The position numbers and the translations under genes were made by a program. Shown here in pieces: positions 183 to 26,310 of a DNA stretch of 36,549 nucleotides; the first letter of the stretch is position 1; every line of letters begins with the position of its first letter. Origin of the DNA: Chiloscyllium plagiosum (Eukaryota); contig NC_057718.1 in assembly GCF_004010195.1 (NCBI RefSeq), forward strand, positions 9,248,209-9,284,757, written 5' to 3'. The notes under the pieces are model-generated. The model searched no databases. It had not been told where the DNA came from and saw only the letters and a list, made by a program, of their open reading frames with translations.

Positions 183-863
183 TTTGCTCCATATCCCTCT
201 AAACCCTTCCTATCCATGTACTTGACCAAATGCCTTTTAAATGATCATGATTTGGAGATGCCGGTGTTGGACTGGGGTGTACAAAGTTAAAAATCATACA
301 ACACCAGATTATAGTCCAACAGGTTTAATTAGAAGCACTAGCTTTCGAGCAACTATAATCTGGTGTTGTGTGATTTTTAACTTTTAAATGCTGTAATTGT
401 ACCAGCCTCCACCACTTCCTCCTGCAACTCGTTCCATTCACGTACTACCCTCTGTATGAAAAAGTTAGCCCTCAGGACCCTTTTACATTTTTCCCCTCTT
501 ACTTTAAACCTATGCCATCTGGCTTTGGACTCCCCCACCCCAGGGAAAAGACCTTGGCTATTCACCCTATCCAAGCCCCTCATGGTTTTATAAACCTCTA
601 CAAGGTCACACCTCAGCCTCCAACGCTCCAGGGAAAAAGGCCCCAGCCTATCCAGCCTCTCTGTATAATTCAAACTCTCCAGTCTCAGTAACAGCCTTGT
701 AAAGCTTTTTTGCACCCTTTCAAGTTTAAGAACATCCTTCCTATAGCAGGGAGATCAGAATTTAACACAGTACTCCAAATGTGACCTTACCAAATATCTT
801 GTACAGCCATAACATGACATCCCAGCTCCTGTACTCAATGCTCTGACAGATGAAGGCAAGCAT
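183..863 (-). mobile_element. CR1 LINE 3' part (ORF2 C-terminus and 3' UTR)
   Basis: ORF 377..715 reads LNYTERLDRLGPFSLERWRLRCDLVEVYK...NFFIQRVVREWNEL, the typical CR1 ORF2 C-terminus. Confidence 0.9.
244..380. mobile_element. Fold-back PLE-derived mini-element (family B) inserted in CR1, with a 10-bp TSD
   Basis: Inverted arms gttaaaaatcatacaacaccagattatagt / actataatctggtgttgtgtgatttttaac; TSD cttttaaatg at 234-243 and 381-390. Confidence 0.8.
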
Positions 864-1458
864 GATGGATCTTTTACAACCTATCATGAAATACAGGGAG
901 AACTAGCCATTTGGATACAGAACTGGCTCAAATGTAGAAGACAGAGGGTGGTGGTGGAGGGTTGTTTTTCAGACTGGAGGCCTGGTGGCTAGTGGTGTGC
1001 CACAAGGATCAGTGCTGGGTCCATTACTTTTCATCATTTATATAAATGATTTGGATGTGAACATAGGAGGTATGGTTAGTAAGTTTGCAAATGACACCAA
1101 AATTGGAGGTGTAGTAGACAGCAAAGAAGGTTACCTCAGATTACAACGGGATCTTGACCAGATGGGCCAATGGGCTGAGAAGTGGCAGATGGAGTTTAAT
1201 TCAGATAAATGTGAGGTGCTGCATTTTGGAAAAGCAAATCAGAGCAGGACTTATACACTTAATGGTAAGGTCCTTGGGAGTGTTGTTGAACAAAGAGACC
1301 TTGGAGTGCAGGTTCAGAGCTCCTTGAAAGTGGAGTCGCAGGTAGATAGGATAGTGAAGAAGACATTTGGTATGTTTTCCTTTATTGGCCAGAGCACTGA
1401 GTACAGGAGTTGGGAGGTCTTGTTGTGGCTGTACAGGACATTGGTAAAGCCACTTTTA
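864..1458 (+). mobile_element. CR1 LINE reverse transcriptase fragment
   Basis: ORF 985..1482 reads SGVPQGSVLGPLLFIIYINDLD...KFANDTK (degenerate FADD)...WQMEFNSDKCEVLHFG. Confidence 0.92.
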
Positions 1459-2084
1459 ACATCTACTGTCTATCATCAATGATTGTGGACTGTGGGTGAA
1501 AAACATTAGCTTATTGCTGTATTGTGAATCTCAGCCTGGATAATGCATTCATATAGCTGCAGTGGATTACACCTGTTGATTTGCATCATGCCCTCTGTGC
1601 TGCGGCATAGTTGACACTTTCTATGAAGGTGGGATGCAATTGCTATGATGCTACAAATGGATACAATTATGGCCATGAAAGGGTAAAACTGGCACATGCC
1701 TCCTGTTGGCACCAACAGTAAGGTTGGCACAGAGTCAATGTGCAAGCACAAAAATAGCACAGTAGAAATTGATTGGCATCACTGGGATAATTGGCATTCT
1801 TGACACAGGTGGCCAAATGAGTGCAGATGGTATGTGTTGGCATGGCTGACACAGCTGAAAATCTCTGAGCAGCACTCAGTTGGGCACAGCTGGCAGGTTT
1901 GTTTCCGTCCTTTGTATCGGACGCGCAAGGTTGCACTGTTGTCTTTGCAAAAGTGCGCCACCACTGAGTAGTTCAGCCACCATTGATGAACTTGAAACAC
2001 GTGGACATCAACAACAACAAACTCAGTCAAAGGCAACAACCATGCATAGACTGTACAGCACAGAATCAGACCGTTCAGCCCAAC

Positions 2085-3270
2085 TGGTCCATGGCAATGT
2101 TTATTTCTTCTGCCAGAGGGTGGTGACTCTGTGGCAATCAGTGCCACAGAGGGCTGTGGAGACCAAGTGTATTTAAGCCAGAGATAGATAGGCTCTTACT
2201 GAGTATGGGGAAATGGATAGAAGACAGGAGAATGGGGTTGAGAAATGTATCAGCAAAGATCAAATGGTGGAGTAAATGATGGGCCCCATGGTCTGCTCCT
2301 GGTTTCTATGTTTCTATACAATGAGCTTTAGATAGATTACACCAGTGGACAAAACATGGTGTAATGTGTAAAGTGGGAAAATGTCAGGTTGTGCACTTTG
2401 GCAGGGAGAATAGGGCAGGTCTGGGTGGGATGGTCTTCAGAGGGTCAGTGTTGACTCAATGGGCCAAATGACCTCTTTCTGCTCCATGGGGATTCAATGA
2501 TTCTACAAGTAGAATAGCAGAATTGTGTTTCAATGAAGCAAGATTGTAGCATGCTGATGGAAGAGGGATCTGGGTGTCCTGGGACATAAACACAAAACAT
2601 TAGCACGCAGCGAATAACTGGGAAGGCACACAGAATGCTGGCCTTTATTACAATGCGGATGGAATGTAACAGCAGGGAATTTTTGCTACAGCTGTAGAGG
2701 AAATTTGTGAGTTCCCATCTCACAGCTTTGGCCTCCTTTTTTGCGGAGAGATATATCCACATTGAAAGCAATTCACAGAAGGGTTGAATGGTGGAATGAT
2801 GGGGCTGTCTTATCAGGGAAGGTGGAACAGATGGGGTCTATATTGAGGCGTTTATAATAAAGAGGAATTTATTCTCTCTGAGGGTTGTTCCTCTTTTGAA
2901 GTTCTTTCCCCAGTGATCAATGGAGACAGGATAATTGACTATAGACAGATATCTGATTGTCGTGGGAGAAAGGGTTAAATGGGGGACAGGGAGGAAACGG
3001 TATTAGGTTAGTCATCATCTGATTGAATGTAGACAAGCAGGAGGCTGGAAGAACACAGCAAGCCAGGCAGCATCAGGAGGTAGAGAAGTCGACGTTTCAG
3101 GTGTAACCTTTCTTCAAGAGTCCTGAAACGATGACTTCTCCATCTTCTGATGCTGCCTGGCATTCTGTGTCCTTCCAGCTTGTCTACTTTGGTTTCCAGC
3201 ATTTTTTTGTCTCCAACCATGATCTGATTGAATGGCAGAGCAGAGGCCGAATGGCCTCAATCCATTGTTG
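2085..3270 (+). mobile_element. Old, degenerate CR1 LINE fragments
   Basis: CR1-like segments: ttcttctgccagagggtggtg, aaatgtcaggttgtgcactttggcagggagaa and the 3' end gattgaatggcagagcag. Confidence 0.65.
3030..3221. mobile_element. Fold-back PLE-derived mini-element with a degenerate hammerhead and a 13-bp TSD
   Basis: Arms of about 70 bp at 3030-3101 and 3122-3187; TSD atctgattgaatg at 3017-3029 and 3222-3234; minus-strand ttgaaga...gaaacgtc. Confidence 0.75.
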
Positions 3271-3939
3271 GTTTGTAGGTTGTTTCCTCTTGCTCTGCCT
3301 GCAAATGGAAGCTTGCGTTTTCTCACCGACCTACACTCAGAGACAGCACTGACTCCTCGTGGGATCGATTCCCAACATCCTTCCAGCAGAGACCATGCCA
3401 GGAAAGTAGTTACCCATAGCCCTGGATCCTCTGCCACTACCGCATCCCAAACTGGAGAAGACCGGCCTTTAGCAGCAGAGCCAACTTTAAAGAGCTCACT
3501 CCCCATCAATCCATGGCCGGTGGGTCATCAAAGAGACGGAGGAGAAATTTGCTGCCTCGGTGTTTTCAAAACCAAGAGGCACATTCTTTTTACAGACTTC
3601 TCCTGTCTCACCCTATCTTCCACTTGCTCATTTTCCCAGAATCTCCCGAGATCCATCCATCTTCCCCGTGGTATTGAGCAGGATATCCTCCTTCCACATA
3701 TGGTAACAGCTGATTTGCAGAGCAATGATCAGAGAAATAACAAAACAAACCGCCTCGCATTTGCAACGACACCCAGACCGGTCAGTCCTCAAACCAAGAA
3801 GGCTGGGGGCGGGCAGCCACAATGTGTCCTTGTACAGGCAAGGGTTTTGCTCTATCAAGGGTTTGGCTGCAATACTAGCTGCAGCAGCAACAGCTTGCAT
3901 TTATGTGGCGCCCGTTAGACAGCAGAACGCCCCAAGGAA

Positions 3940-4465
3940 CATAGAGTCAGAGAGATGTACAGCACGGAAACAGACTCTTTGGTCCAATTTGTCCATGCTG
4001 ACCAGATATCCTCAACAAATCTTGTCCCCATTTGCCAGCATCCAACTCATATCCCTCCAAACCCTTCCTATTCATATACCCATCCAAATGCCTTTTAAAT
4101 ATTGTAATTGTACCCGCCTCCACCACTTCCTCTGGCAACTCATTCCATACACGTATCACCCTCTGCATGAAAATGTTGTCCCTTTGGTCCCTTTTATATC
4201 TTTCCCCTCTTATCCTAAACATATACCCTCTAGTTCTGCACTTCCCCCACCCCAGGGAAAATACTTTGTCTATTTATCCTATCCATGCCCCTCATGATTT
4301 ATAAACCTCCATAAGGGGTTTATGGACTCAGACTCCGACGCTCCAGGGAAAACAGCCCCAACCTGTTCAGCCTCTCCCTGTAGTTCAAACTCTCCAACCC
4401 TGGCAACATCCTTGTAAAATTTTTCTGAACCCTTTCACGTTTCACAATATCCTTCCGATAGGAGT
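3940..4465 (-). mobile_element. CR1 LINE 3' end
   Basis: ORF 3947..4222 reads RGERYKRDQRDNIFMQRVIRVWNELPEEVVEAG; ORF 4320..4550 reads FTRMLPGLESLNYRERLNRLGLFSLE. Confidence 0.9.
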
Positions 4466-4547
4466 CATAGAATTGCCCTTTGTATAATGCACAGAGGGAA
4501 AAGTCCTGGTTTATACCGCTGTTTGAGCTCTGCACAGAGTATACTGC

Positions 4548-4709
4548 CAAGGTTAGAGTGGTGATGGAAAAGCAGATTCCTGATGAAGGGCTCCTGCCTG
4601 AAACATCAATTTCCCTGCTCCTCAGCTGCTGCCTGACCTGCTGTGCTTTTCCAGCACCACTCTAATCTTGAGTCTGATCTCCAGCATCTGCAGTCCTCAC
4701 TTTCACCTG
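4548..4709 (+). mobile_element. Short PLE family A element with degenerate hammerhead and short inverted 5' arm
   Basis: cctgatgaagggctcctgcctgaaacatc; imperfect TSD acagagtatactgc (4534-4547) / acagcgtacactgc (4710-4723). Confidence 0.75.
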
Positions 4710-4779
4710 ACAGCGTACACTGCACCCCATGTCCTTCCATTTCTTCCTCCCTTATCCAGCTTCCTTTAGATGGGAATTT

Positions 4780-4990
4780 AAAAAACAAAGAATTGCGGAT
4801 CCTGGAAATCAGAAACATAAACTGAATTTGCTGAAGAAACTCCGTAGGTCTAGCAGCATCTGTGTGAGAGAAAGCAGAGTTAACGTCCTTCTTCAGAACT
4901 GTCACCTGACTTGAAATGCTAACTCTGCTTTCCACCCACAGAATTTGCCAGACCTGTAGAGCTTCTCCAGCAATTTCGGGGTTTTTATCC
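4780..4990. mobile_element. Degenerate fold-back element (probably PLE-derived)
   Basis: Imperfect inverted arms ...aggtctagcagcatctgtgtgagagaaagcagagttaac / gctaactctgctttccacccacagaatttgccagacct... Confidence 0.6.
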
Positions 4991-5768
4991 CTGTGCTACT
5001 CTACCCTGTGACATGGTGAGTTTCACTCTCTGATGAAGACTTGGAAACAAAATGAAAAACTCAATCTGTGTGATAGATTTTAGTAAAAACAGAGAGGCAA
5101 GGAGGTTTAGAGATGAATTTCCAGGGCTTAAAGGACAGCAGAAGGGACAGTCACCAATGATGCAGTGATTGAAGCTGTGGAGACAGCAAGAGGCTAGGAT
5201 CCGAGGATGGGCTGGGGGGGGGGGGGGGTTTACCTAGGGCCCACAGGTTGCAAATTGGACTTCTCTGCCATCTCAGACCCCAGAGCGGAAGGCCAGTCAT
5301 GCTCGATCCAGAGGGACTGCCAAAGATACCTCAGGAACGCTGCACTGTCAGAGATGCAGAGGTTACAAAACTCTGGTGAATAGCAACAAAACAGTCCAAC
5401 AGCGACAAAGTACTTTGTTGGCTATAAAGTGCTTTGGGGCACTCCTGAGACAACAAAAGGCACCATATAAATACAATGCTTTCTTTTACCAAGTAAGCCT
5501 CATGCCCTCAATTGGAAAACAAACCAGGCATATCTTTGTCCAGTTTGGGTGAGTTTTAACTGTCAATTAAACAACCTTTTAATTACCACTCCCCCACCCA
5601 ACACCCCCACCACCCCAGTATTTTTAACAATATTGAAGGAGACAGTTTTCTCAACATCCCTGTTACTTCTCTCTAAGAGTTAGTTGCTCATTGCCATGCC
5701 TGTGAGATTAATCACTCGTTCCTGTAAGACTCCATTGTGACAGCAGCAGTGTTACCCTGACCCACTCA

Positions 5769-5894
5769 TTCCTGATGAAGGGCTTATGCCCGAAACATCG
5801 AGTCTCCTGCTCCTCGGATGCTGCCTGACCTGCTGTGCTTTTCCAGCACCACTCTCTCGACTCTGATCTCCAGCGTCTGCAGTCCTCACTTTCT
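5769..5894 (+). mobile_element. Short PLE family A element with hammerhead motif and 8-bp TSD
   Basis: attcCTGATGAaGGGCttatGCCCGAAAcatcgagt; TSD cccactca at 5761-5768 and 5895-5902. Confidence 0.8.
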
Positions 5895-6399: not shown

Positions 6400-6680
6400 T
6401 TTTTAAAAATTCTCTGATTGCCCAGAGGGTACTTAAGAGTCAAACATGTTGCTGTAGGTGTGGAGTCACCTGTAGGCTAGACACAGATGGCAGTTTCCTT
6501 CCCTAAAGGATGTTAGTGAACCAGATGGGTTTTCCCCACAGTCATCATTAGATTCTTAATCCCAGAATTTCCGGCTATTGAATTCAACTTCCGACATCTT
6601 CCATGGCAAGACTTGAACCCAATTCCCCTCAACATTTCGGGATTGACAGCTCATGGATAACACAACTAGACCAGCACACC
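6400..6680 (-). mobile_element. tRNA-derived SINE (SacSINE1/Deu-like)
   Basis: Reverse-complement similarity to 14476-14803. The family name is from recall. Confidence 0.65.
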
Positions 6681-7270: not shown

Positions 7271-7644
7271 GTTCAGTCATTACAGCATTTTTAAAAATTG
7301 ACCAAAAGCATTGGGGCAACCGTTCCCTGTTGCACTCCTCATGGTAATGCCTGGATGGATTTGATGCCAACCAATCAGCACCCTTTTCTCATGCATACAC
7401 ACTTTACTCCCTTTGACATTTGGCATTCTTGCATCTGTCCTGATGAGAAAATCTTCAGCACAACATCACTTTTGCAGAAATAGTGAATGACTGATTTCTT
7501 TGATCTCAGTGCATTGGCTATATACTGCTGGCAAGGTCAAATAGCAACATTGAAAAGCAAGTTGCTATTTCGCAAATAACTGAGAAGATGGCTGATCTGG
7601 ATCCACATTACTGGCCATCATAGATGTGTCTGAGAGCTATATAC

Positions 7645-8848
7645 CTGAAGGTCTTCAAGGATAAGGAAGGGGAGCCTCTGTTCTCCATCCTGTCAGCGAT
7701 CCCATTGTGTGTGCTTCCTGCACAGAGGAGTCGGGTTGTTACAATCCATATGTACACCCCTATGTTCCAGCAGCTGATGTCCTGACCTTCCTGGGAAGGT
7801 ACATCCAAGTTGAGGGAGAAAGCACCGATGTGGTCGACACTTTCGGGATCTGGACCAGTAAGCGGCAGGTCAGGGTAACCCTGAGGGTCGATGACACCGG
7901 GAACATTCTCCACCCCCCCTCGAGCTTCGCAATTGAAGGGAGCAGAGGCTACCTGACATATGCAGGGTAGCCAAAAGTGTGCCGAACCTGCGGGAAGTCA
8001 GGACGCATGGTGGCGGGTTGCAAGGTGACCATCTGCAGGAACTGCAAACAGGAGGGTCACCTGACTAAGGACTGTCAGGAAGCAAATAGCTGCAACCTGT
8101 GCGGAGAGGCGGGCCACATGTACAAGACCTGCCCAAGACAGGGGGGGCCCCACTTATGCACAGATGGCCGGAGGTGGCAATGTGACCCCGTGGACCCCGA
8201 AAGATCAGTAAGGTCCACCCAGACAGCAGGGAAACGGAGTCTGGTGGCACCCAGAAAGAAGAACAGACTGGAGCGGAGGAGGCGGCAGCCAGCGGAGAGA
8301 CACAGCAGCTGATCCTAGCTCTAGCTGGGCAGATGGAAGCAATGGAGGAGGAGGTAATCGAGAAGGCAGAGGAGTGGATACCTGTTAAAAACAGGAAAAG
8401 AAAATCCTGCCAGGCCCCCAAAACCTCCCAGCAAAAGGGAAAACGACAGTTGCATGAGGGAGGGACGACCAGCTCTTCGGATGGTGAAGATGGGCGCAAG
8501 GTGGGTCATCACCAGAAGACGGGACAGACCACCGTAGGTGAAGAGGAGGTCATTTCCTCCCAATCAGGAAACAACGGACCCCCCGAAGTCCACCCTCCAC
8601 CCAGTGAAAACCAGGGGGTACCCACTGCCCCACAGCTACAGCTAACTGAGAGCCGTGATCCTCTGACAGTCCCATTGTCAGACACAGGTGTGGACCCTTG
8701 CCTCGGCTCAATGACACCAGAGCAGGTAAATGACCCCAGTGAGAGCCTGGATAGCTACCTCAGCCCTGCAAGTGTCCAGCAGTTCGCGCTCACCATGGGG
8801 ATGCAGACAGCTACCCCAGAGACAGGACAGTCAAATGGACAATGGTAA
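7645..8848 (+). pseudogene. Decayed Tx1/L1-clade ORF1p (ZCCHC3-like; three CCHC zinc knuckles and an acidic low-complexity tail)
   Basis: Joined frames read LKVFKDKEGEPLFSIL...RVVTIHMY/PYVPAADVLTFLGRY...FGIWTSKRQ...RGYLTYAG*PKVCRTCGKSGRMVAGC...CRNCKQEGHLTKDC...CNLCGEAGHMYKTC. Frameshifts near 7756 and 8145, TAG at 7968-7970, first knuckle H>R. Confidence 0.85.
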
Positions 8849-9230
8849 CCCCATAAACTGGGAGTTAAAGAAAGTTCCTTTGTTATCGTATAACAGGGGG
8901 CCCATTCAGTAGGAGAAAGTGAGGACTGCAAATGCTGGAGATCAGAGCCAAAAATGTGTTGCTGGAAAAGCGCAGCAGGTCAGGCAACATCCAAGGAGCA
9001 GGAGAGTCGGGCATAAGCCCTCCTTCAGGAATGAGGAGAGTGTGCCAAGCAGGCTAAGATAAAAGGTAGGGAGGAGGGGCGTTGGAAATGCAATTGGTGG
9101 AAGGAGATTAAGATGAGGGTGATAGGCCAGAGTGGGGGTGGGGGCTGAGAGGTCAGGAAGAAGATTGCAGGTTAGGAAGGTGGTGCTGAGTTCGAGGGTT
9201 GGGACTGAGACAAGGTGGGGGGAGGGGAAA

Positions 9231-10063
9231 TGAGGAAACTGGAGAAATCTGAGTTCATCCCTTGTGGTTGGAGTGTTCCTAGGCGGAGGATGAGGCGCTC
9301 TTCCTCCAGCCATCATATTGCTATGGTCTGGCGATGGAGGAGTCCAAGGACCTGCATGTCCTTGGTGGAGTGGGAAGGGGATTTGAAGTGTTGAGCCACG
9401 GGGTGGTTGGATTGGTTGGTCCGGGTGTCCCAGAGGTGTTCTCTGAAACATTCCGCAAGTAAGCGGCCTGTCTCCCAATATAGAGGAGGCCACATCAGGT
9501 GCAGCGAATGCAGTAAATGATGTGTGTGGAATGTAGGTGAATTTGTGGCAGATATGGAAGGATCCCTTGGGACCTTGGAGGGAAGTAATGGGGGAGGTGT
9601 GGGCGCAAGTTTTGCATTTCTTGCGGTTGCAGGGGAAGGTGCTGGGAGTGGAGGTTGGGTTGGTGGGGGGTATGGACCTGACAAGGGAGTCATGGAGGGA
9701 GTGGTCTTTTCGGATCGCTGATAGGGGAGGGAAGGGAAATATATCCCTGGTGATGGGGTCCGTTTGGAGGTGGCGGAAATGACGACGGATGATACAATGT
9801 ATATGATGGTTGGTGGGGTGGTAGGTGAGGACCAGTGGGGTTCTGTACTGGTGGCAATTGGAGGGGCAGGGCTCAAGGGCGGAGGAGGGGGAAGTGGAGG
9901 AGATGCGGTGGAGAGAATCGTCGATCACGTCTGGGAGGAAATTGCGGTCCTTGAAGAAGGAGGCCATCTGGGTTGTTCGGTTTTGGAACTGGTCCTCCTG
10001 GGAGCAGATGCGGCAGAGACGAAGGAATTGGGAATATGGGATGGCGTTTTTACAGGGGGCAGG
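9231..10063 (-). pseudogene. Penelope ORF C-terminus (RT thumb/linker and GIY-YIG endonuclease), frameshifted
   Basis: AIPYSQFLRLCRICS...RTPLVLTYHP...FPCNRKKCKTC...ETGRLLAECFREH...HPVAQHFKSPSHS...MQVLGL are characteristic PLE motifs. Confidence 0.88.
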
Positions 10064-10838
10064 NNNNNNNNNNNNNNNNNNNNNNNNNNNNNNNNNNNNN
10101 NNNNNNNNNNNNNNNNNNNNNNNNNNNNNNNNNNNNNNNNNNNNNNNNNNNNNNNNNNNNNNNNNNNNNNNNNNNNNNNNNNNNNNNNNNNNNNNNNNNN
10201 NNNNNNNNNNNNNNNNNNNNNNNNNNNNNNNNNNNNNNNNNNNNNNNNNNNNNNNNNNNNNNNNNNNNNNNNNNNNNNNNNNNNNNNNNNNNNNNNNNNN
10301 NNNNNNNNNNNNNNNNNNNNNNNNNNNNNNNNNNNNNNNNNNNNNNNNNNNNNNNNNNNNNNNNNNNNNNNNNNNNNNNNNNNNNNNNNNNNNNNNNNNN
10401 NNNNNNNNNNNNNNNNNNNNNNNNNNNNNNNNNNNNNNNNNNNNNNNNNNNNNNNNNNNNNNNNNNNNNNNNNNNNNNNNNNNNNNNNNNNNNNNNNNNN
10501 NNNNNNNNNNNNNNNNNNNNNNNNNNNNNNNNNNNNNNNNNNNNNNNNNNNNNNNNNNNNNNNNNNNNNNNNNNNNNNNNNNNNNNNNNNNNNNNNNNNN
10601 NNNNNNNNNNNNNNNNNNNNNNNNNNNNNNNNNNNNNNNNNNNNNNNNNNNNNNNNNNNNNNNNNNNNNNNNNNNNNNNNNNNNNNNNNNNNNNNNNNNN
10701 NNNNNNNNNNNNNNNNNNNNNNNNNNNNNNNNNNNNNNNNNNNNNNNNNNNNNNNNNNNNNNNNNNNNNNNNNNNNNNNNNNNNNNNNNNNNNNNNNNNN
10801 NNNNNNNNNNNNNNNNNNNNNNNNNNNNNNNNNNNNNN
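10064..10838. other. Assembly gap (775 N)
   Basis: Run of N. Confidence 1.
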
Positions 10839-10973
10839 CGGGTGTCCCAGAGGTGTTCTCTGAAACATTCCGCAAGTAGGCGGCCTGCCTTCCACCAATT
10901 GCATTTCCAACGCCCCTCCCCCAAGTCCCTCCTCCCTACCTTTTATCTTAGCCTGCTGGACACACTTTCCTCA

Positions 10974-11007
10974 TTCCTGAAGAAGGGCTCATGCCCGAAA
11001 CGTCGAT
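10974..11007 (+). ncRNA. Hammerhead ribozyme motif in the Penelope pseudo-LTR (family A)
   Basis: ttc-CTGAAGA-a-GGGC tcat GCCC-GAA ACGT C-gat. Confidence 0.75.
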
Positions 11008-12231
11008 TCTCCTGCTCCCTGGATGCTGCCTGACCTGCTGCGCTTTTCCAGCAACACATTTTCGGCCCACTCAGTAGTTGGGTTCCACTGAAGCCTCAGC
11101 TAAATACTAAGAGACTGGATGGTTAATAGACAGAACTGTAAATACGATAACTGTAAATTCGATTAACTCAATCTGTTCTCTGTAATGTTAAGACGTGCAA
11201 TGTATATATGAACAGCATGATCAATTGTACATAGATTTATTTCTATGAATAAAGTACATTTTGAAATTTTAAAAAAATTATATTTATATAGCACCTTTAC
11301 AGTAGAATAACATTTGAAGGTGGTCCACACAATGACATTCCTCCTGGGTGTTTTTGGCAGTGCACTCAATGGGCTAAAAGGTTATTTCTATACTATCTGA
11401 TTCTATGATTCTAAGACAGTTAGCTTTGTAAAAACATATCTCAACATAGAAGGGATTTGTGGCCTTTCACCAGAATGAGATTCCACAAATGACAATGGGA
11501 TTTTTATTTTATTTTCCCAATTGGGGGTGTCACTGGCCGGGCCAGGAATTCTTGCCCACCCCGAACTGCCCCTTGTCAAACTAATGGTGAACTCCTTTCA
11601 GGCTCTCCTTCAAACTAGTCTCTGACCAACTTTCAGCAATTATCCCGAGTATCCCTTTATGCGGCTCCTTGCCCAGTATCGTTATTAAGGTGCTTCTGTC
11701 AAATGACTTCCAACATTTTATGACTTACGCATTTATCCCGCTCTGCAGCCCTTCCCCCATCTTCTCCCCATAACCCTGCAATTTCTCCTTTTCAGATGAT
11801 AATGGAACGTCTTCTTGAAGGTCTCTTCTGAACCTGCCTACCACCCCCCGCCCCCCCCCCCCCCCCCCGCCCCCCATCCATTCTCAGGCAGTAGATTCCA
11901 GATCCTAGCCACTTGCTGGATGAAAACATTTCTCCTCATGTCTCCATCGCTTACTCTGCCAATCACCTTCAATCCACGTGCTGAGGTTCCCCTGGCCTCC
12001 TTTCCTCCTTGTGTTTATTGAGTTTCCCCTCAAATTCATCAACATCATTCACCATGACCCCCTCATGTGGTGGAGAGTCCAATATTCCTGCCTGTGCAAA
12101 GAATTTGTCACTGTTGAACTTATGAGGGGTTGCATTAGGTGTGTCCCATGTTTTGAACTCCTTCACAAGTGGGCACATTAGGGACAATGCAACTTCCCCC
12201 CCCCCCCCCCGCCCCTCCCGTGAATAGGCAG

Positions 12232-13595
12232 AACTTTCACTGTTTGTGGTAGGGTCCTGGGGAGTGTTGTCAAACAGACAGACTGATGGGTTCATGTACA
12301 GAGTTCTTTGAAGGTAGTGTCACAGATAGACAGAGTCATTAAGAAGGTGTTTAGTGCACTTGCTTTCATTATTCTGATCACTGGGTATAGGATTTTGGAG
12401 CATAAGACATAGGAGCAGAAATTAGGCCATTCAGCCCATCGAGTCAGCTCCACCATTCAATCATGGCTGATCCTTAGATGCTGCCTGAACTGCTGTGCTA
12501 TTCCAGCACCACTAATCCAAAATATGGTTTCCAGCATCTGCAGTCATTGTTTTTACCTACCTGATAAGTTTCTCAACCTAATTCTCCCTCTTTCTCCCCG
12601 TAACCCTTGATCCCCTTGCTACTCAAGAACCTATCTATCTCAGTCTTAAATATACCTGGCCTCCACAGCCTTATGTGGCAGTGAATTCCATAGATTCCCC
12701 GATCTCTGGCTGAAGATGTTTCTCCTTATCTCTGTAAAAGGTCTTTCCTTTACTCTCAGGCTGTGCTCTCGGGTCCTAGTCTCTCCTACCAATGGAAACA
12801 TCTGCCTAACATCTACTCTGTCCAGGCCATTCATTATTCTGTAAGTTTCAATTAGATCCCCCCTCATCGTTCTAAACTCTGTTTATTATAGACTCAGAGT
12901 CCTCAAATGTTCCTCATATGTTAGGCTTTTCATTCCTGGGACCATTCTCGTGAACCTCGTCTGAACACGCTCCAGGGCCAATCCATCCTTCCTGAGATAT
13001 GAGGCCCTAAACTGTGCACAATACTCCAGTTGTCATGTTGTGATTGTACAGGACATTGGTGGGGCCACATTTGGAGTACTGTGTGCAGTCCTGGTAGGAA
13101 GGAAGGATATTAAAGTAATTGGAAAGGATTCAGAAAAGATTGACCGGGATGTTGCCAGGACAGGAGGGTTTCAGCTATAGAGAAAGGTCAGATAATCTGG
13201 GACTTTTTTCACTGGAGAATAGGAACCTTATAGAGGTTTAGAAAATCATAAGGGACACACATTAGGCGAACAGCAAAGGTCTTTTCCCTAGGGAGGGGGA
13301 GTTCAAAACAACAGGGCATGTTTTTAAGGTGAGAGGCGAAAGATTTAAGAGAGACCTTAGGGGCAACTTTTTCACACAGAGGGTGGTTCGGTGTGTGGAA
13401 TTAGCTGCCAGAGGAAGTGGTAGAGGCAGGTATAGTTACAACATTTAAAAGGCAATTGAATAGGTACATGGTTAGGAAAAGTTCGGAAGGAGATGTGCCA
13501 ATGGCAGGCAAATGGGACCAGTTTAGTTTGTGAACATGACGGCATGGACGAGTTGGACCAAAGGACCTGTTTCTGTGTTGTATGCCTCTACGACT
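12232..13595 (+). mobile_element. CR1 LINE 3' portion split by a nested antisense CR1
   Basis: gggtataggattttggag (to 12400) rejoins gtcatgttgtgattgtacaggacattgg (from 13032); ends in the CR1 tail ctctacgactctatg. Confidence 0.8.
12401..13031 (-). mobile_element. Nested CR1 LINE 3' end, itself carrying a PLE fragment at about 12472-12560
   Basis: ORF 12646..12867 reads MRGDLIETYRIMNGLDRVD...RRNIFSQR...WNSLP. Confidence 0.85.
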
Positions 13596-15592: not shown

Positions 15593-15624
<32 letters not shown>

Positions 15625-16240: not shown

Positions 16241-16593
16241 CATCATTTATTCCCTTCCCTTGTTTCACCTCACATATATCTGGATTGAATTCTATTTGCC
16301 ACTGACCAGCCCAACTCTCTTTGCTTTTCTCTCTCTTAAGCCCCAGTGGATATTAACCTGCTTCACTTTCCTCAAAGAAACAATCTCCCATTCTAAGCAT
16401 TAGTGAGTTAATGCATTTATCGTATTAAGGGTGTGTGAATGAAATGCAAGTTATTATGTTGTTGTTGGTAGTGCCCTCCCTGTCTTTGTTTAAAAACTGC
16501 ATGGCCTCATTCCTCCAGCCACACTAACAATTTTCTCTATGCCTCTCCTTCAGCACTTTCAGTTGGTCTATCTCTGGCCTCTCCCCATCCTAG

Positions 16594-16808
16594 TAGAAAG
16601 TGAGGACTGCAGATGAGGGAGATCAGAGTCGAGACTGTAGTGCTGGAAAAGCACAGCAGGTCAGGCAGCATCCGAGAAGCAGGGGAATTGGCATTTCGGG
16701 CATAAGCACTTCATCAAGAACGAGAAGATGACGAAGGGTTTATACCCGAACATCAATTCTCCTGCTCCTCGGTTGCTGCCTGACCTGCTGTGCTTTTCCA
16801 TCACCACA
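16594..16808. mobile_element. Fold-back PLE family A mini-element with two divergent degenerate hammerheads
   Basis: Inverted arms at about 16640-16716 and 16729-16806; flanks ctctccccatcct / ctctgcccatcct resemble a TSD. Confidence 0.8.
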
Positions 16809-17012
16809 CCCTCTGCCCATCCTTCCTGGTGACTACTGTTCAGCATCTAAACAGGGCGATTGGCATTGAGGAGAACAGAAATGTTTTCACACAGAATTGG
16901 CCACTGTTTCCTGCACCCAACCAGGAGACCACTGATTCTCAGGCTCCGTGTAACCAGAAACCAAACAGTAAATTCCAGAGAACAACAAATGAAGATACTC
17001 AAGGTGCAAACT

Positions 17013-17575
17013 TAAGCTAAAAATCACACAACACCAGGTTATAGTCCAACAGGTTTATTTGGAAGCACTAGCTTTCCGAGCGCTGCTCCTTCATCAGGTG
17101 GTTGAGGAGCAGGAAGATATGACACAGAATTTATCGCAAAAGGTTACAGTATCCTGCGGCTGAAATATATTAAACAAACTTAGATTAAGTCTTGCATCGT
17201 TTAGAATGGTTTTGCTAGTTTCGGTTCATTAATATGCAAATCCCAGAACTCCTTTTAAGTCATAGTCTCAAGGTAACTTCAGGTTTCCTAACAAAGTGTG
17301 TCATCTCAGCTCACACCATGCATTAAAGGTGTGAGGTGAAAGTCTGTCTGTGTCCCCACCTTGAGTCAGACTGGTTCTATTTCTGAAGTGGGATTTATCT
17401 AAAGTGACACATTTTTTTAGAAAACCTGAAGTTACCTTGAGAATGTGACTTAAAAGGAATTCTGGGATTTACACATTAACGAACCGAAACTAGCAAAACC
17501 ATTCTAAAAGATGAAAGACTTCATCCAATTGTGTTTAATACATTTCAGCTGCATGACACTATAACCTTTTGCGAT
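17013..17575 (-). mobile_element. PLE family B 3' end with a ~170-bp inverted arm
   Basis: 17133-17303 and 17404-17575 are reverse complements; the left end matches 244-380 and 25362-25565. Confidence 0.8.
17066..17100 (-). ncRNA. Hammerhead ribozyme motif (family B)
   Basis: Minus strand reads cac-CTGATGA-a-gGAGC agc GCTCg-GAA AGCT A-gtg, with stem I cac/gtg and a palindromic AGCT. Confidence 0.7.
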
Positions 17576-18151
17576 CTTGGTGCCAACTGACAGTCTAAAA
17601 TCTAGTCCATGGTCAGGAACATGGCAAGCCTGCCTCATAATATCAAACAGACAGCTTTAAGAAACAAGCATCGGATTTACATTCACAACTTGGAATAAAC
17701 AGTAAGAGTGGAAGAATCATAACAGACTCAAAGCGTTCACCCTGTTTCTCTCTCCACAGATGCTGCCAGACCTGCTGGGTTTCTCCAGCAATTTCTGTTT
17801 CGATTTAGTCTGTCTGTGTGGAGTGTGACTTCTTGTTGATATCTTGGATTTTGTCGGAGTGATTATTGTTCTTTGCTGTATCATTCCCTCCTGGTCTCCT
17901 CTTCACTGAGCCATTGGGTCTGGCGATGGGGCATTATGCTGAGTTTACTGAACAATGGAGGTAGTCACAATGCGAAACCTAGAGAAGGGGCAGCTACAGG
18001 GAAGCAAGCATCAGTCAGAAAATACATCATTTTCAAAGCACTGTGCTGACCTGGTGGAAGTGCCAGCTGTGCAGTGCCCCCCCCCCCGTGCAGTGCCCCC
18101 CCCCCCCCTCCACCTCTTATTCAATGGCAGGACATGCTCAAATTGAATGCA

Positions 18152-18211: not shown

Positions 18212-18240
18212 TGAGTTTGGCTGGCAGTGAGGTGAATGCT

Positions 18241-18500
18241 GGGGTGGCTCAGTGGTGAGTGCTGCTGCATCACAGCACCAGTGACTTGGGTTTGATTCCG
18301 CCCTCAGGTGACTGTCTGTGCAGAGTTTGCACATTCTCTCTGTGTGGGTGTGCTCCAGTTTCCTTCCATAGTCTAAAGATGTGCAGGTAAGGTAGATTTG
18401 GAAATATGGGTTACAAGGATAGTGGCTTTGGGTCAGCAGTTCTTCAGAGGGTCAGTGTGGACATGATGGGCTAAATGGTCTGCTTCCACGTTATATGATT
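18241..18500 (+). mobile_element. HE1/V-SINE-like SINE
   Basis: gtggctcagtggtgagtgctgctgcatcacagcacca...gtttgcacattctc...aaagatgtgcagg. Confidence 0.8.
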
Positions 18501-20470: not shown

Positions 20471-20631
20471 CACAGACACTCAGCCTTTTCTTGAATGACT
20501 TGTTCATGATGATGATCCGAGTCAGTAAGTTATCATTTGTTAACCATCGCTGGTTTCCTTCACTGTCACTGAAAATCATCCAGTGTAGGACTGGAGTCAC
20601 GTGTAGTCAAGGTGGGAGTGTTGACATCATT

Positions 20632-20833
20632 TGCCAGATATGAAGAAGGGAAAAGAAGGAGAATGTTCCTGATCTGTTAATTGGAATAAAAAAAGAGGTG
20701 AGGCATCCAATAATCTTTCTGTTGCCTGGACTACAGGGTGTGGGACACAATGTGCCAACAGATGTTCCATTCTGTACTCATTATAGCTCATCTCTCTCGA
20801 AGCCTCCAACAATATTCCCTGGAACTGGCAGTC
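20632..20833 (+). repeat. Local duplicated segment, copy 2
   Basis: Aligns to 18915-19107 with small indels. Confidence 0.9.
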
Positions 20834-21359
20834 CCGTTTCTCTCTCCACAAGGGGCTGCCAGACCTGCTGAGCATTTGTAGCTCAGGGCCAGGGTAGCTA
20901 TTGATGGTGCCAAAGAAGTCTGAGAATGGTCAAGCGATCAACATATCGGCAACCCCTAATTACTCACAGGAAGGCGTTGGCGAACTGCCTTCTTGAAAAG
21001 CTACAGTCCATTTGGGGGCTGAAATACCTACAGTGCTGCTGCCAGTCCATCCCTAAAACCTTCTGTTTTTTAAGGGTGTTCGGCCTCTGGAACAATCTTG
21101 TGATGAGATCACAGAACTGCACATCATTGAGCATAAACAGACCAGTGTGGGCACTGTTTGGAGTCACTGTGCACTCTGGTAGGGCATCAGCAGACTGTAA
21201 CCATCTAGGCTGGACCCACACGAGCATACGGACACAAACACACACAAGGAAGGCGCACAATGTACGATTATCCCTCACCTAACATAATTCTGATTCAGAC
21301 CCTTGTCTAGCTATGATGACCATGTGTAGTGGGATTTAGTATTCATGTGCAGAAAATAG

Positions 21360-21540
21360 TGGGGATCAGTTAGCTCAGATGGTGAGTGATGCCAACAGAG
21401 TGGGTTCAATTCCCAGACTGGCTGAGGTTGCCACAAAGGTCCCACCTTCCCAACTGTCCCCTCAGCTGAGGTGGAGTGACCTTCAGGTTAGACTCACCAC
21501 CACTTGACTCTCTCTCTCTAATGAGAGAGCAAGGCTACAG
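21360..21540 (+). mobile_element. tRNA-derived SINE
   Basis: A box ttagctcagatgg, B box ggttcaattccc and a 3' hairpin ctctctc-taat-gagagag. Confidence 0.65.
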
Positions 21541-21719
21541 TATCTTATCTTTTTCTACAATAAATAGAGTCACTCTGGCATTCAATCCCAAAGATATTTC
21601 TTAACGTATCCTTCTCCTCAACTTGAACCCAAGTTAATAGTCTGGCATCAAGTCAAAAGATTATTCTGTAGAAGCCCTACGGTGTGGAAACAAGCCATTC
21701 AGCCCATCAGTACCAGGAT

Positions 21720-22302
21720 CTCAAAGGCACAACATCGCCTCTTCCTCAGGAGGCTTAGGAAATTCGGCATGTCCATACGGACCCTCACCAACTTTTACAG
21801 ATGCACCATAGAAAGCATTCTGCCCAGGTGCATAAGAGCCTGGTATGGCAACTGCTCTGCCCAGGACCATAAGAAACTGCTGATGGTGGTGTGCACAGCC
21901 CAGATCATCACAGAAGCCAACCTCCCATCCATGGACTCCAGTTACACAGCTTGTTGCCATGGAAAGGCTGCCAACATCATCACAGACCCCTCCCAGCCTG
22001 GTAATGCTCTCCTCCAACCTCTTCCGTCAGACAGAAGATACCGACGCTTGAATACACACCAACAGGTTCAGGAACAGCTTCTTCCCCGCTGTTATTAGAC
22101 TGCTGAATGGACCTCTCTAACTTCAAATGATGTTGACCTTGCTTTGTGCATCTCCTGTACAGTGTAACCCTGTATGACCTTGCGCTGTCTAAGCACCCAA
22201 TGGCCTGCATGTTCTCGTTTGCTATGATCTGCCTGGACTACTCACAAAAACAAAGCTTTCCACTGTACTTAGGTACATGTGACAACAATAAATCAAATCA
22301 AG
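21720..22302 (+). mobile_element. Rex1/Babar-clade LINE 3' end, nested in an antisense HE1-like SINE (21670-22448)
   Basis: ORF 21682..22098 reads KAQHRLFLRRLRKFG...LTNFYRCTIESIL...WYGNCS...KAANIITDPS...LPSDRRYR; tail aataaatcaaatcaa. Confidence 0.85.
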
Positions 22303-23703
22303 TCCATACCAACTCTCTGATGAGTATCCCACCCAGGCCTACACCTTACCCCATCCCTTAATTCCCCAGCCACCCTAACCTGCACAGCTTTGGACTGTGG
22401 GAGGAAGTCAGAGCACCCATAGGAAACCCATACAGACATAGGGAGAATAAGAATCGATCACATTGCTGGGGGTCTGGAGCCACGCATAGGCCAAACTGGG
22501 TAAAGACGACAGATTTCCTTCCCTAAAGGACATTAATGAATGAGTTGTGTTTTGTAATGATTGCAATTATTTCTGGGAACAGTTTTCTTCAAAGGTCTCC
22601 AGCTGGTAGGATTTGAACCAGTGGGCCTATCTGATGAGTTCTGGCCTCCTTCTTACTGCTCCTTACTACAGGACACCAGTACACACCACGGCATGTCAAT
22701 GCGTCCCCATTTACTCTGTTCACTTCTGCGAAAGGCCTTGGGATGTTTAAAAATGGCACAGGTGCAATATAAATGTAGAATGTTGCTGTAAAGGCAGTGA
22801 AGTCTTGGCACTGCATATACGTGGATTCAGCAAGTTTCCAAATGCTTCTCAGAATCATGTAGAAAAATCCTGAATCTGACTGTTTTCTTTTCCTGTAATC
22901 AGCAAACGATAGCAAAGCTCCTGTTCCTAGAAGTCTGACCTTGAATTTATAACTCAGTGTTCATTATTGTCAAGGGCAGATCTCAGCACGAACTGTGAGG
23001 TGTTTCGTGCAAGCAAAGAAATTTGGTTTTGTCACCTTTTAACGAGATTCAGTAATTTTATTTGCAGCTGAGATTGCTAACTTGCATTTAGTTAACACCT
23101 ACCACATCCCAAAATGCTTTGTCCCCAGGGTCATCAAACACAGTCTAACACCGAGTCACAAAAGTAGATAGTAGCACAAGCGACTTCAAAGGGGTAGATT
23201 TTTAACGAGTATCTTAAAGGAGGACAGAGAGGGAAAAAGATGGAGAGAACACTCCCAAGTTTAGTGTCTTGGCAATTGAAGTGATGCTGCTAGTGGTGAG
23301 GGAAGGAAATCTCAATATGTAAAAGGCCAGAATTGGAGGAGAATTACAGATCTCAGAGGGTTGGAGAAGATTATAGAGATGGGAAGGGGCAAACTTCCTG
23401 GAGGACTATACCCAATAAGATGTTGATTTTAACATCGAAGAGTTGCTTGACTGAAATCCCAGTGCAGGTGAACAAGCACTGCAGCAGTAATTTAGTTCCC
23501 TCTGGTCGTAAAGATCAACATAAAATAAACTGATTGGGGCGGGGCTTGGTAGGTGCCAGGAGAATTGTCCAATTTCACAAGGGAAGTAAACCGTAAGAAG
23601 TGGAAACCTTGACTGACTTTCTTTAAAAACCTCCCTAGCCCAGGGCTACAAAGGGTAATTGTTGCACACCCCCCAGCATCTCCACCTGTCATAGGTTACT
23701 TAC

Positions 23704-23709
23704 CTTGAA
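23704..23709 (-). other. Candidate 6-nt micro-exon (TTCAAG)
   Basis: Minus strand reads ttgtctctatttaacctCAG|TTCAAG|GTAAGTaa. Confidence 0.5.
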
Positions 23710-23786
23710 CTGAGGTTAAATAGAGACAATGATTAAACACAGGGTTGGACATAAAATTACCAGTTATCAAGGCGATTTACACTTAC

Positions 23787-23875
23787 CATTCTGATTCCCC
23801 TCATTTCTAAGCTGTTTGTAATCCAGCATTGAATGAATTGGACAATTTTGTGAACATGTGAATCTGTCTTTTATA
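23787..23875 (-). promoter_or_regulatory. Candidate TATA promoter and short first exon ending ATG|GTAAGT
   Basis: Minus-strand TATAAAA at 23875-23869; ATG AGG GGA ATC AGA ATG at 23804-23787; consensus donor GTAAGT at 23786-23781. Confidence 0.5.
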
Positions 23876-24112
23876 GCAGTGTTCCCCAGTTGTGATTTCC
23901 CCTCCCACAATCCACTGCCTTCAAAGGCCTTGCTGCAGTTTTTCCCAACAGGCTCTCCTACTCAGACTCCCTCATCAAACACCCTCGGCAAAGCAGAACT
24001 CATCCGAAGCCCTGACAGTAATATCTTAACCAAGTCCTATTCACACGTTGTCCTCACACTCTCTCCTCCTCCACTTGCTCCCAGTCCACTGATGCTCTAA
24101 CCTGTACCCTCG

Positions 24113-24989
24113 TGTTGATATGGACCAGACCAGTACCCCTCAAAATATATTAAGAAGGTAGCCTAGACCCTAACCTTTTCTTATTTCAAATGATAATGCC
24201 AGGTTCTGTGTTCCTGATGCAATTCGATTAGTCAAATTACTTGACATTAAGCAAAACACAATTTATTCAAACACTGGAGTTGAAACGCAACAAAAGAAAG
24301 GAACTTGGAATAACTTAACTCTACTGAAAAACTTAACAGAATATTAAACACAGTAACTATTACTAATAAACTGTTCCAACGTAGGAACATCCTTGGCAAA
24401 TGCAAATTCCGAAATCAGAATTGTCTCCCATGCAATCCAGCAGCCTTTGAAGAGGATCCCCAATTCTTGGCAGTACTGAAGAGACAGGAAAATAGCTTCC
24501 ACTTATTAAAGATCCCAGCAGCAACTGCTGAAAGCTAAACTAAAGATCCTTGATTCTGTGCGTGGGAGCTTGACAACACCCATTCAGGCTGCTTCTATTG
24601 TTCCAGTTTTAAAAACACACCCCAAGGCTTCACAAGTTGTTTATTCAGTTGAGTACTCAGCGCCTGTCTTTATACTTACCACACTGATTCCCCTCATTTC
24701 TGAGTTGTTTGTAATCCAGTATTGAATGAATTGGATAAGTTTGTGAACGTTTGTGTTTGTCTTTTATAGCACTGTTCCCCAGCTGTGATTTCCCTCCCAC
24801 AATCCACCACCTTCAGAGGCCTTGCTGCAGCTTTACTCAACAGGCTCTCCCACTCAGGGTCCCATCACTCCCCTTCAGAAAAGCTGAATTCATCCGAACC
24901 CCTGACAGTAATATCTTAACCACGCCCCCAATCTCTCTCTAAAAGAAACTAGGACAAAACATACCTCTTAAAGCCACAGCATCATCACA
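24113..24989 (-). mobile_element. Solo LTR inserted in an L2-like fragment and carrying a 254-bp copy of adjacent DNA
   Basis: TG...CA termini (tgttgat...catcaca), minus-strand AATAAA near 24262-24267, and L2-like sequence resuming on both sides. No clear TSD. Confidence 0.6.
24669..24922 (+). repeat. Diverged direct copy of 23776-24032
   Basis: Colinear from ttta(c/t)acttacc to cctgacagtaatatcttaacca. Confidence 0.92.
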
Positions 24990-25361
24990 CTGTTTAAACC
25001 TCTCCAGAGCATCGCCACTCTCCACTCCCAAAATCCGTCCAAACCCATGCCCTTCTCAGAGGTCAACTGAGCTCCAAGTCAAAACTTTAGTGTATTTCTC
25101 ATTTTCTTCACATCCCCTCCAGCCCCTTCCAACAGAGGCAGTTGTCCATTCAGCTTTCTAATCTGTGTCAATCCCTGCCTAGGTCTCTGCACCACATTCT
25201 CTTCTGAGAACACCCTACTTAAACCAACATTTTCGACAAAGCATTTCAGCACCCGTACTTTATTCTTTGGCTTTGAATTGATTTTCTATCTGTTGCAATG
25301 CTGTGAAATGACTTTAGGATCTTTGTAACTAAATTTAAAGTGACTTTAAATATGCTAATCA

Positions 25362-25565
25362 TTATGATTTGGAGATGCCGGTGTTGGACTGGGGGTGTAC
25401 AAAGTTAAAAATCGCACAACACCAGGTTATAGTCCAACAGGTTTAATTGGAGGCACTAGATTTTGGAGCACTGCAGGTGGTTGATGATGAAGGAGCAGTG
25501 CTCCGAAATCTAGTGCTTCCAATTAAACCTGTTGGACTATAACCTGGTGTTGTGTGATTTTTAAC
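25362..25565. mobile_element. Fold-back PLE family B mini-element with mutated hammerhead
   Basis: Near-perfect inverted arms at about 25404-25474 and 25494-25565; atgatgaaggagcagtgctccgaaatctagtg. Confidence 0.82.
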
Positions 25566-25829
25566 TATCTTAATTGTTGTAATTGAATTTGAGAGACAGC
25601 TTCATATTGGCATTTTAAGCACTTTCTTTCATGGGGCGCGGGTACCACTGACAAGACCAGCAAGTGTTTCCTATCCCTAATTGTCCTTGAACTGAGTGGG
25701 TTGCTAAGCGACCTGAATGTCAGCCACTTGCTTGTGGGTCTGGAGTGACATGTAGGCCAGACTGGGTAAGGATGGCAGATTTTCTTCCCTGAAGGGCAAT
25801 AGTGAACCAAATGATTTATTTCCCAACAG

Positions 25830-26310
25830 AGAAAGGAAAGATATAAAAGGGACCTAGGGGACAATGTTTTCACGCAAAGGGTGGTGCATGTGTGGAATGA
25901 GCTGCCAGAGGAAGTGGTGGAAGCTGGTACAATTACAACATTTAAAAGGCACCTGGATGCGCATATGAATAGGAAGGGTTTGGAGAGATATGGATCAAGA
26001 TTAGAGTGGTGCTGGAAAAGCACAGCAGGTCTGACGGCATCCGAGGAGCAGGAAAATTGACGATTCAGGGAAAAGCTCTTCATCAGGTTGAATGGGCTTT
26101 TACCCGAAACGTCGATTTTCCTGCTCCTCTGATGCTGCCTGATCTGCTGTGCTTTTCCAGCACCACTCTACTCTTGACTCTGATCTCCAGTACTCACTTT
26201 CACCTTGGAGAGATATGGGCCAAGTGCTGGCAAATGGGAGCAGATTAATTTAGAATATCAGATCAACATGGACAAAAGGGAACATTGCCATGCTGTACAT
26301 CTCTACATCT
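25830..26310 (+). mobile_element. CR1 3' end inserted in a SacSINE-like SINE and interrupted by a PLE fold-back element
   Basis: gatataaaagggacctagggg...tggaatgagctgccagaggaagtggtgg. Confidence 0.8.
25994..26204. mobile_element. Fold-back PLE family A mini-element with a 14-bp TSD
   Basis: TSD ttggagagatatgg at 25980-25993 and 26205-26218; inverted arms; two degenerate hammerheads back to back. Confidence 0.85.

Follow-up and report, generated by a model that had tools for sequence, protein, structure and literature searches.

Fold-back insertions of Penelope-like element termini in a Chiloscyllium plagiosum locus and the clustering of their 5′ ends at a hammerhead motif

The DNA described here is a window of 36,549 nucleotides (nt) from Chiloscyllium plagiosum (contig NC_057718.1, positions 9,248,209–9,284,757); by the window is meant this whole stretch, and all positions refer to it. 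It is repeat-rich vertebrate DNA with a single gap of N (10064–10838). The window displays nine fold-back insertions, together with single-armed copies, and these go back mostly to old, single integration events of at least four related families (A–D) of endonuclease-bearing Penelope-like elements (PLEs). Each insert consists of the terminal module of its element, with or without a tail of 31–43 nt, and the target-site duplication (TSD), where present, varies in length. The 5′ ends of the copies cluster at the outer edge of the hammerhead ribozyme motif of the module.

The longest insertion belongs to family A and is located at positions 8913–11063 on the minus strand. Its tailed arm (minus strand) reaches at least 1150 nt into the element and its tail-less inverted arm is on the plus strand at 10839–11063; at 10839–10894 the inverted arm lacks about 317 nt that are present in the other arm. 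The tail-less arm contains an intact minimal hammerhead motif (10973–11008, plus strand), with the 5′ strand of helix I at 10973–10976, C3 at 10977, a bulged A, a helix II of 4 bp, a palindromic ACGT that replaces helix III, and a predicted cut between 11004 and 11005. The insertion is flanked by a TSD of 14 bp with one mismatch (8899–8912/11064–11077). Arm starts below are given relative to C3.

Three short fold-backs are also of family A. The one at 4548–4709 (plus strand) has a 27-nt tail-less minus arm (4548–4574), a non-templated G at 4575 and a tailed arm at 4576–4709 that starts at the A at −4 (C3 = 4580, sequence read directly); its TSD is 14 bp with two mismatches (4534–4547/4710–4723). 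The fold-back at 16592–16809 (minus strand) has a tailed minus arm from 16592 to about 16724 (start about −7), a tail-less plus arm from about 16729 to 16809 (start +2) and a 14-bp TSD with one mismatch (16578–16591/16810–16823). That at 25994–26204 (plus strand) has a tail-less minus arm at 25994–26087 (start −1), a tailed plus arm from about 26090 to 26204 (start about +5) and an exact 14-bp TSD (25980–25993/26205–26218). Two plus-strand copies consist of a single tailed arm. The copy at 5769–5894 (C3 = 5772) has an exact 8-bp TSD (5761–5768/5895–5902); its 5′ end can be placed only to within −3 to −7, since the last letters of the TSD match the upstream sequence of the element. The copy at 12472–12560 starts at about +44, downstream of the hammerhead. 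A tail-less plus-strand copy at 88–183 has an intact hammerhead motif (C3 = 92), no TSD and a 5′ boundary that is not fixed.

Family B is represented by the plus-strand fold-back at 3030–3217, with a tail-less minus arm at 3030–3121 that starts at the A at −4 and a tailed plus arm at 3122–3217 that starts at +17. Its TSD of 17 bp has one mismatch (3013–3029/3218–3234). In family C, the fold-back at 244–380 (minus strand) has a tailed minus arm from 244 to about 347, starting at about +15, a tail-less plus arm from about 352 to 380, starting at about +52, and an exact 10-bp TSD (234–243/381–390). The family C fold-back at 25360–25565 (minus strand) has a tailed minus arm with a 9-nt deletion in the core (start −6 to −8), a tail-less plus arm (start +2) and an unclear TSD. 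A longer family C fold-back is at 17013–17578 (minus strand). Its tail-less minus arm (17013–17303) extends about 215 nt beyond the hammerhead, while the part on the plus strand stops about 40 nt upstream of it, with no terminus, owing perhaps to a later deletion or to a third priming site. Family D has a minus-strand fold-back at 4780–4990 with no TSD, in which the tailed minus arm (4780–4901) starts at −4/−5 and has lost stem II, and the tail-less plus arm (4902–4990) starts at +11/+12. A plus-strand remnant of family D, also with no TSD, is found at 17730–17800. Two further ends were observed: a PLE-type end of a fifth family (E), at 36321–36549 on the minus strand, which has an intact minimal hammerhead motif (C3 at 36431) and runs off the window end, and a decayed plus-strand remnant with a hammerhead-like core at 7370–7470, which may represent a further PLE family.

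TSDs were scored as matches minus twice the mismatches, with 294 random intervals as background. A preliminary description, made from the sequence alone, had named TSDs at 244, 3030, 4548, 5769, 16592 and 25994. All six are present with scores of 8–14, and a score of 8 or more is reached in only 5 of the random intervals. The 13-bp core at 3030 proved exact, but the insert ends at 16592 had been placed 1–2 nt off. The same description found no clear TSD at the 4780–4990 and 25362–25565 hairpins, which agrees with their scores of 3 and 6; the latter (25360–25565) has a 15-bp repeat with three mismatches, and 56 random intervals score as high. A 10-bp flanking repeat with one mismatch at 17013–17578 scores 7 (20 random intervals), and the 5-bp TSD at 12472–12560 is at chance level (136 as high). 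TSD length thus varies: 8 and 14 bp in family A (the 5 bp being chance-level), 17 bp in B and 10 bp in C. The seven short fold-backs fold with z-scores of −5.3 to −18.7 against shuffled sequences, compared with −1.9 for the single-armed 5769 copy. Arm-to-arm identity is 76–97% across the nine fold-backs, so most of them are old.

The tail is on exactly one arm in all eight fold-backs that have two termini. It is about 35–38 nt long in family A, 42–43 nt in C, and 31–33 nt in the decayed B and D copies. The centre of the fold-back differs among copies of the same family (A: 4548, 16592 and 25994; C: 244 and 25360), which indicates that the hairpin was made at each insertion. The long copy at 8913–11063 is built in the same manner as the short inserts: its minus arm consists of the full family A terminus plus a coding remnant, and its plus arm is an inverted copy that ends about 35 nt before the terminus.

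The coding remnant (9313–10062, minus strand) is a frameshifted C-terminal part of a PLE protein, and its translations display a region that follows the reverse transcriptase (RT), a Cys/His linker and an endonuclease-like end. Positions 9541–10060 (minus strand) show 63–71% identity to proteins named for Chiloscyllium, Rhincodon and Stegostoma. Relatives of this protein carry PF00078 and PF01541, the second of which we take to be GIY-YIG, although the three decayed PLE frames in the window themselves had no match when scanned directly against Pfam. The coding link is established for family A only, not for B, C or D. The remnant contains a C-x4-C-x2-C-x-H motif. A Zn-finger-like motif between RT and endonuclease is a Neptune feature, found also in Nematis (PMC8557442), and on this motif the families are probably of the Neptune type. 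On the four features tested, namely the link to an RT and endonuclease open reading frame (ORF), a minimal type I hammerhead, an inverted copy and a one-sided tail, the inserts fall in the insertion class of endonuclease-bearing PLEs. There is little doubt that they are products of such elements and were built at insertion. A Stegostoma-named protein (P0005) has a read-through C-terminus, LMKG, that is the expected translation of a hammerhead core behind the endonuclease, from another shark PLE family.

All four families A–D have the minimal hammerhead, consisting of the core, one bulged base, a helix II of 4–5 pairs and a 4-nt palindrome in place of helix III. A short helix I is present in each, with pairs that are family-specific and compensating. 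Several copies have mutated cores. In addition, three tailed arms (8913–9060, 4780–4901 and 25360–25490) have deletions of 8–15 nt inside the hammerhead, and at 4780 and 25360 the deletion coincides with the start of the other arm. An Rfam scan of the window gave no hammerhead family, only sub-threshold matches resembling microRNAs (miRNAs); a hammerhead match is not expected, since the motif lacks helix III. A degenerate terminus motif had no matches in metagenome, prokaryote-genome or viral contigs.

Eleven insertions contributed 19 arms, whose 5′ ends were placed by hand relative to C3. The copies at 88 and 17730 (without TSD) and the right part of 17013–17578 (without terminus) are outside this count, and the two arms of one insertion are not independent. 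Of the 19 arms, three start far upstream, ten at −9 to +5, three at +6 to +27 and three downstream of the cut site. A 15-nt window with ten arms arose in 0–28 of 40,000 simulations under six length models. The arms are thus clustered at the outer end of helix I, as the suggested enrichment of breakpoints near the hammerhead would have it, but not at the predicted cut site, within 3 nt of which no arm of the 19 starts. The earlier reading of the inserts as heavily truncated PLE insertions with a boundary tied to the ribozyme region is supported. The claim that the turn-around point lies at or just beyond the hammerhead applies to the seven short fold-backs, six of which have one arm at −9 to −1, although this is the 5′ edge of the ribozyme rather than the cut site. 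The preliminary description had overlooked the longer fold-backs at 8913–11063 and 17013–17578, whose centres are far upstream of the hammerhead, and the copy at 12472–12560, which starts downstream.

In each family the boundary is at the outer end of helix I, at −4/−5 in A, B and D and at −6 in C. In the family A reference copy this is position 10973, the outermost (first) base of helix I, and the arm boundary tracks that base in B, C and D too. Since this is some 30 nt upstream of the predicted cut, cleavage does not set the boundary. Tailed and tail-less arms share the stop position and not the length, their starts being about 35 nt apart. Both arm types stopping at the same sequence position indicates a boundary set by the template and not by processivity. 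A recurrent unit of 123–132 nt is found in 7 of the 10 tailed arms, and the tailed arm reaches further 5′ in five of the seven short fold-backs.

The same terminus was compared in sequencing runs, using positions 10839–11138 as query. Matches were found in 58,322 and 58,488 contigs of two DNA runs (X1 and X9, from organisms A and B) and in 3,253 reads of an RNA run (X21); a second RNA run (X22) gave 0 reads. The best DNA run contains 0.62 of the words of the window and may come from a relative rather than the same species. Five of the six listed rows of 5′ loose ends are at 10972–10974, with 293 and 449 contigs in X1, 467 and 326 in X9, and 216 reads in X21. The flanks at these rows are mixed (agreement 0.31–0.39, median length 255 in the DNA runs), as expected of unrelated unique flanks. 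The sixth row, at 10982, has an agreement of 0.68 and comes from the upstream region of another subfamily. In successive 10-nt bins starting at 10959, X21 depth is 278, 702, 1320, 1745, 2062, 2274 and 2513. The steepest climb (278 to 1320 across 10959–10988) is at the 5′ edge of the ribozyme; there is no step at 11004/11005 and no listed loose-end row there. Six of the 15 joints listed are strand switches, and four of these six have one side at 10971–10974. One inverted joint is present in 21 RNA reads with 17 starts, which shows transcription of at least one fold-back. Such transcripts might feed small-RNA pathways, as the preliminary description proposed, but the identity between arms is no more than 76–97%.

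Position 10973 is the A of an initiator-like motif that matches both YYANWYY and BBCABW, as do 128 of the 9777 plus-strand A's in the window. These are initiator consensi, and a match alone does not make a promoter (PMC5287107). An extra G is found beside the boundary base at 4575, in two of the joints listed and as the last letter of the loose-end consensus in both DNA runs. Such an extra G has been interpreted as cap copying (PMC4038843). The alternative that the boundary is a 3′ splice site was rejected, there being no AG before 10973.

The explanation that best fits these findings as a whole, and which we consider probable, is PLE insertion with run-off at a capped RNA start and twin cDNAs. 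A dimer of the RT/endonuclease would cut both target strands, as suggested by the published biochemistry of PAc, an Anolis Poseidon element. The cDNA would start at either of two internal RNA sites, about 125 and about 90 nt downstream of the hammerhead, and the stretch between these sites would be the tail. One cDNA would give a single arm; one cDNA from each target end would give a fold-back of two head-to-head arms, only one of which has the tail. The template would be uncleaved RNA. That the template RNA ends at helix I is likely. That this end is the capped start of the transcript is a weaker proposition, which we favour only slightly. A tandem copy upstream would supply, in its terminal repeat, the start of the element's transcript, so that the end module doubles as the 5′ leader of the RNA. 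Priming on this leader would exhaust the RNA after 90–130 nt, as in strong-stop cDNA, and the product would be integrated as it is, while priming on the downstream copy of the module would give long inserts such as 8913–11063. The second arm would end at the same RNA end or earlier, which places the centre of the hairpin at the ribozyme without the ribozyme being its cause.

Transcription in D. virilis is driven by an internal promoter and has its start in the pseudo-LTR (long terminal repeat) of an upstream copy (PMC2377424). A partial tandem, a pseudo-LTR followed by the ORF, is absent from the window. Among the joints listed, a head-to-tail joint from 11062 to 10976 (tail-less end to −1, an 87-nt unit) is present in five X1 contigs and two X9 contigs. 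A search for shark proteins with an N-terminus encoded by the terminal module gave no full-length shark ORF among 62 matches (four inspected; nine from a first search). Coding by the leader is not claimed for this reason and because the frame through the tail differs between subfamilies.

Several findings weigh against an RNA that starts at helix I. Nine of the 19 arms start outside the −9 to +5 cluster. Matches to both initiator consensi are common, being found at 5 of 52 A's in the 330-nt end of the element, and in family C the match is limited to the CA core. Few cases show the extra G; some insertions in X1 and X9 may be orthologous, and the X21 consensus has T as its last letter. The listed loose ends are 18 of 709 rows and the listed joints 15 of 33. 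Part of the depth step may be due to subfamilies that diverge upstream, as in the 10982 row. Reads of X21, a polyA single-cell library not built to show starts, show no pile-up of RNA starts or ends. The D. virilis start is about 120 nt upstream of the hammerhead (PMC4209133, PMC2377424). No copy or protein was found in which the tail continues into the ORF. Cleavage could still act as a minor route, since each DNA run has one listed strand-switch joint with a side at 11005, immediately after the cut.

A SINE-like (short interspersed nuclear element) origin, in which the PLE protein copies, in trans, a short non-autonomous master RNA that consists of the 125–130-nt module alone and has an internal promoter of its own, the inverted arm still being made at each insertion, is unlikely, though it survives best among the alternatives. 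It would account for the recurrent 123–132-nt unit of the tailed arms; an internal promoter is known in D. virilis (PMC2377424) and non-autonomous PLE derivatives have been described (PMC8557442, bioRxiv 10.64898/2026.07.22.740005). However, the same boundary is found in four families, and the window contains a long coding copy of the aacacat-type subfamily, by which the hotspot is defined. PAc activity, moreover, needs RNA to +172 of the ORF, beyond the mapped start at +111–118 (PMC11167929), a part that solo copies may lack.

More doubtful is a boundary set by RNA structure, where a 5′-to-3′ nuclease trims to the base of a protein-bound hammerhead or the RT is released on leaving helix I. 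The boundary does track the outer end of helix I from family to family, the three arms with deletions inside the hammerhead would fit, and the PAc hammerhead is protein-assisted (PMC11167929). Yet helix I has just 3–5 pairs, including a mismatch, on general grounds the 3′ side of the structure is the first that the RT would encounter, and neither the extra G nor the initiator-like context is explained.

Self-priming, by copying of a first cDNA that has folded back on itself and trimming of the tail by the endonuclease, is equally doubtful. It has been proposed for palindromic PLE junctions (PMC3846280), both arms are always of the same subfamily, and the tailed arm is the one extending further 5′ in most short fold-backs. 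In pure form it fails at 3030 and 25994, where the tail-less arm has 5′ sequence absent from the tailed arm and the tailed arm has the tail. Two RNA-templated cDNAs are favoured because neither arm at these two insertions can copy the other. Self-priming concerns the second arm only and can be combined with run-off at a capped start.

Self-cleavage of the hammerhead as the source of the RNA end where cDNA stops is very improbable. Intact hammerhead motifs exist and the two joints at 11005 would fit, but the window arms, the listed loose ends and the depth profile all lack a boundary at the cut site, and PAc inserts from uncleaved RNA (PMC11167929).

The other possibility raised in the preliminary description, that of independent families of fold-backs propagating themselves like miniature inverted-repeat transposable elements (MITEs) or retrozymes, is the least credible and is not upheld: despite an overall length of 188–218 bp in five of the seven short fold-backs, strong hairpins and TSDs, each same-family copy has a different centre, the arms are asymmetric in their tails, TSDs range over 8–17 bp, opposite-strand hammerheads leave one sense hammerhead per transcript, the unit forms no tandem array in the window, and a long coding copy has the same build.

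The inserts show the anatomy known for PLEs, in which an inverted 5′-truncated copy is accompanied by a one-sided tail of 30–40 bp (PMC8557442, PMC3846280, PMC2377424, PMC8969392). Insertions of Penelope/Poseidon and Neptune likewise have an inverted tail-less copy, a one-sided tail, TSDs of 8–17 bp, a hammerhead in the terminal repeat and long coding copies; unlike these, for which the available texts describe variable truncation, most copies here consist of only the terminal 90–130 nt with clustered 5′ ends (PMC8557442, PMC3846280, PMC2377424). The PAc protein is predicted to form a dimer. It cuts and extends both strands of the target on uncleaved RNA, and the tail of the element corresponds to the RNA between the two internal sites where the RT starts (PMC11167929). 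The two starts bounding the PAc tail are about 110–150 nt downstream of the hammerhead, which is similar to the arrangement proposed here, whereas the Cys/His linker in this window suggests the Neptune type, and the available PAc text is silent on run-off products and on a fixed 5′ boundary (PMC11167929).

The hammerheads share with the minimal hammerheads of metazoan PLEs the bulged base between A9 and helix II, the palindromic 15.2–16.2 and the short helix I (PMC4209133). Metazoan minimal hammerheads are mostly solo and derived from truncated PLEs, with opposite-strand pairs 100–700 bp apart in Schistosoma; the pairs here are closer, with adjacent centres, and sharks are not discussed in the available part of that text (PMC4209133). 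Non-LTR retrozymes are also non-coding, derive from PLE terminal repeats, carry type I hammerheads and include one chondrichthyan case, but they form head-to-tail arrays with at least two same-sense hammerheads, while the units in the window are solo or head-to-head (bioRxiv 10.64898/2026.07.22.740005, PMC6765202). At other loci, however, the 87-nt head-to-tail joint described above is present. Assignment to them was rejected on the head-to-head arms and the lack of a tandem array of the unit in the window, and assignment to MITEs on the one-sided tail, the different centres and TSDs of no fixed length.

Minus-strand strong-stop DNA of LTR retroelements is primed by a tRNA near the 5′ end of the RNA and runs off at the cap. 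If the best explanation holds, the PLE product would be alike in priming site and in run-off at the cap, and would differ in that nicked target DNA is the primer, the product is integrated directly, and no LTR, primer-binding site or integrase is involved. The likeness is one of working and not of membership. No description of a fixed 5′ boundary or of a strong-stop-like product in PLEs was found among the open-access papers searched.

Other repeats surround the inserts. Frames with ZCCHC3-like RNA-binding and CCHC zinc-knuckle domains (Pfam) are found at 7600–8900 and from 11078, and this element probably represents ORF 1 of a non-LTR retroelement. Just behind it is the insertion of the long PLE (8913–11063), whose flank at 11078–11138 is multi-copy in X21. 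An RT fragment (RVT_1) and an ALKBH8_N-like frame (Pfam), at 907–1479 and 21568–22095, are probably remnants of long interspersed nuclear elements (LINEs). The targets of the inserts at 244, 12472 and 25994 are presumably LINE 3′ ends, and the dispersed repeat copies at 18243, 19465, 31487 and 34880–35080 are ones we take to be SINE-like. Tandem arrays at 30207–30753, 1–76 and 32881–33084 have units of 76, 16 and 105 nt, none with a hammerhead module.

The fold-back insertion pattern is mostly a feature already known for PLEs. What merits further attention is the clustering of the 5′ boundary, through which an open step of PLE transposition can be put to the test. The origin of the pseudo-LTRs, tails and inverted copies has been called unresolved (PMC8557442, PMC11167929, PMC2377424). 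With about 58,000 contigs per DNA run at one terminus, a very large natural set of junctions is available, and sharp predictions follow: a capped start at helix I, an excess of the extra G, and the share of fold-backs with a longer tail-less arm. For annotation there is the risk that such hairpins are mistaken for MITEs or miRNA precursors. Tentatively, and with less than even confidence, it may be proposed that the 5′ leader of the PLE RNA is the usual starting place of reverse transcription, primed by target DNA, that the 90–130-nt run-off cDNA must then jump to the opposite end of the RNA for a long copy and its pseudo-LTR to be made, and that in these sharks it is integrated in very large numbers as solo or head-to-head stubs, the hammerhead being the first 35 nt of the transcript. 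If this is true, the stubs would be a genome-wide record of unresolved steps in PLE transposition.

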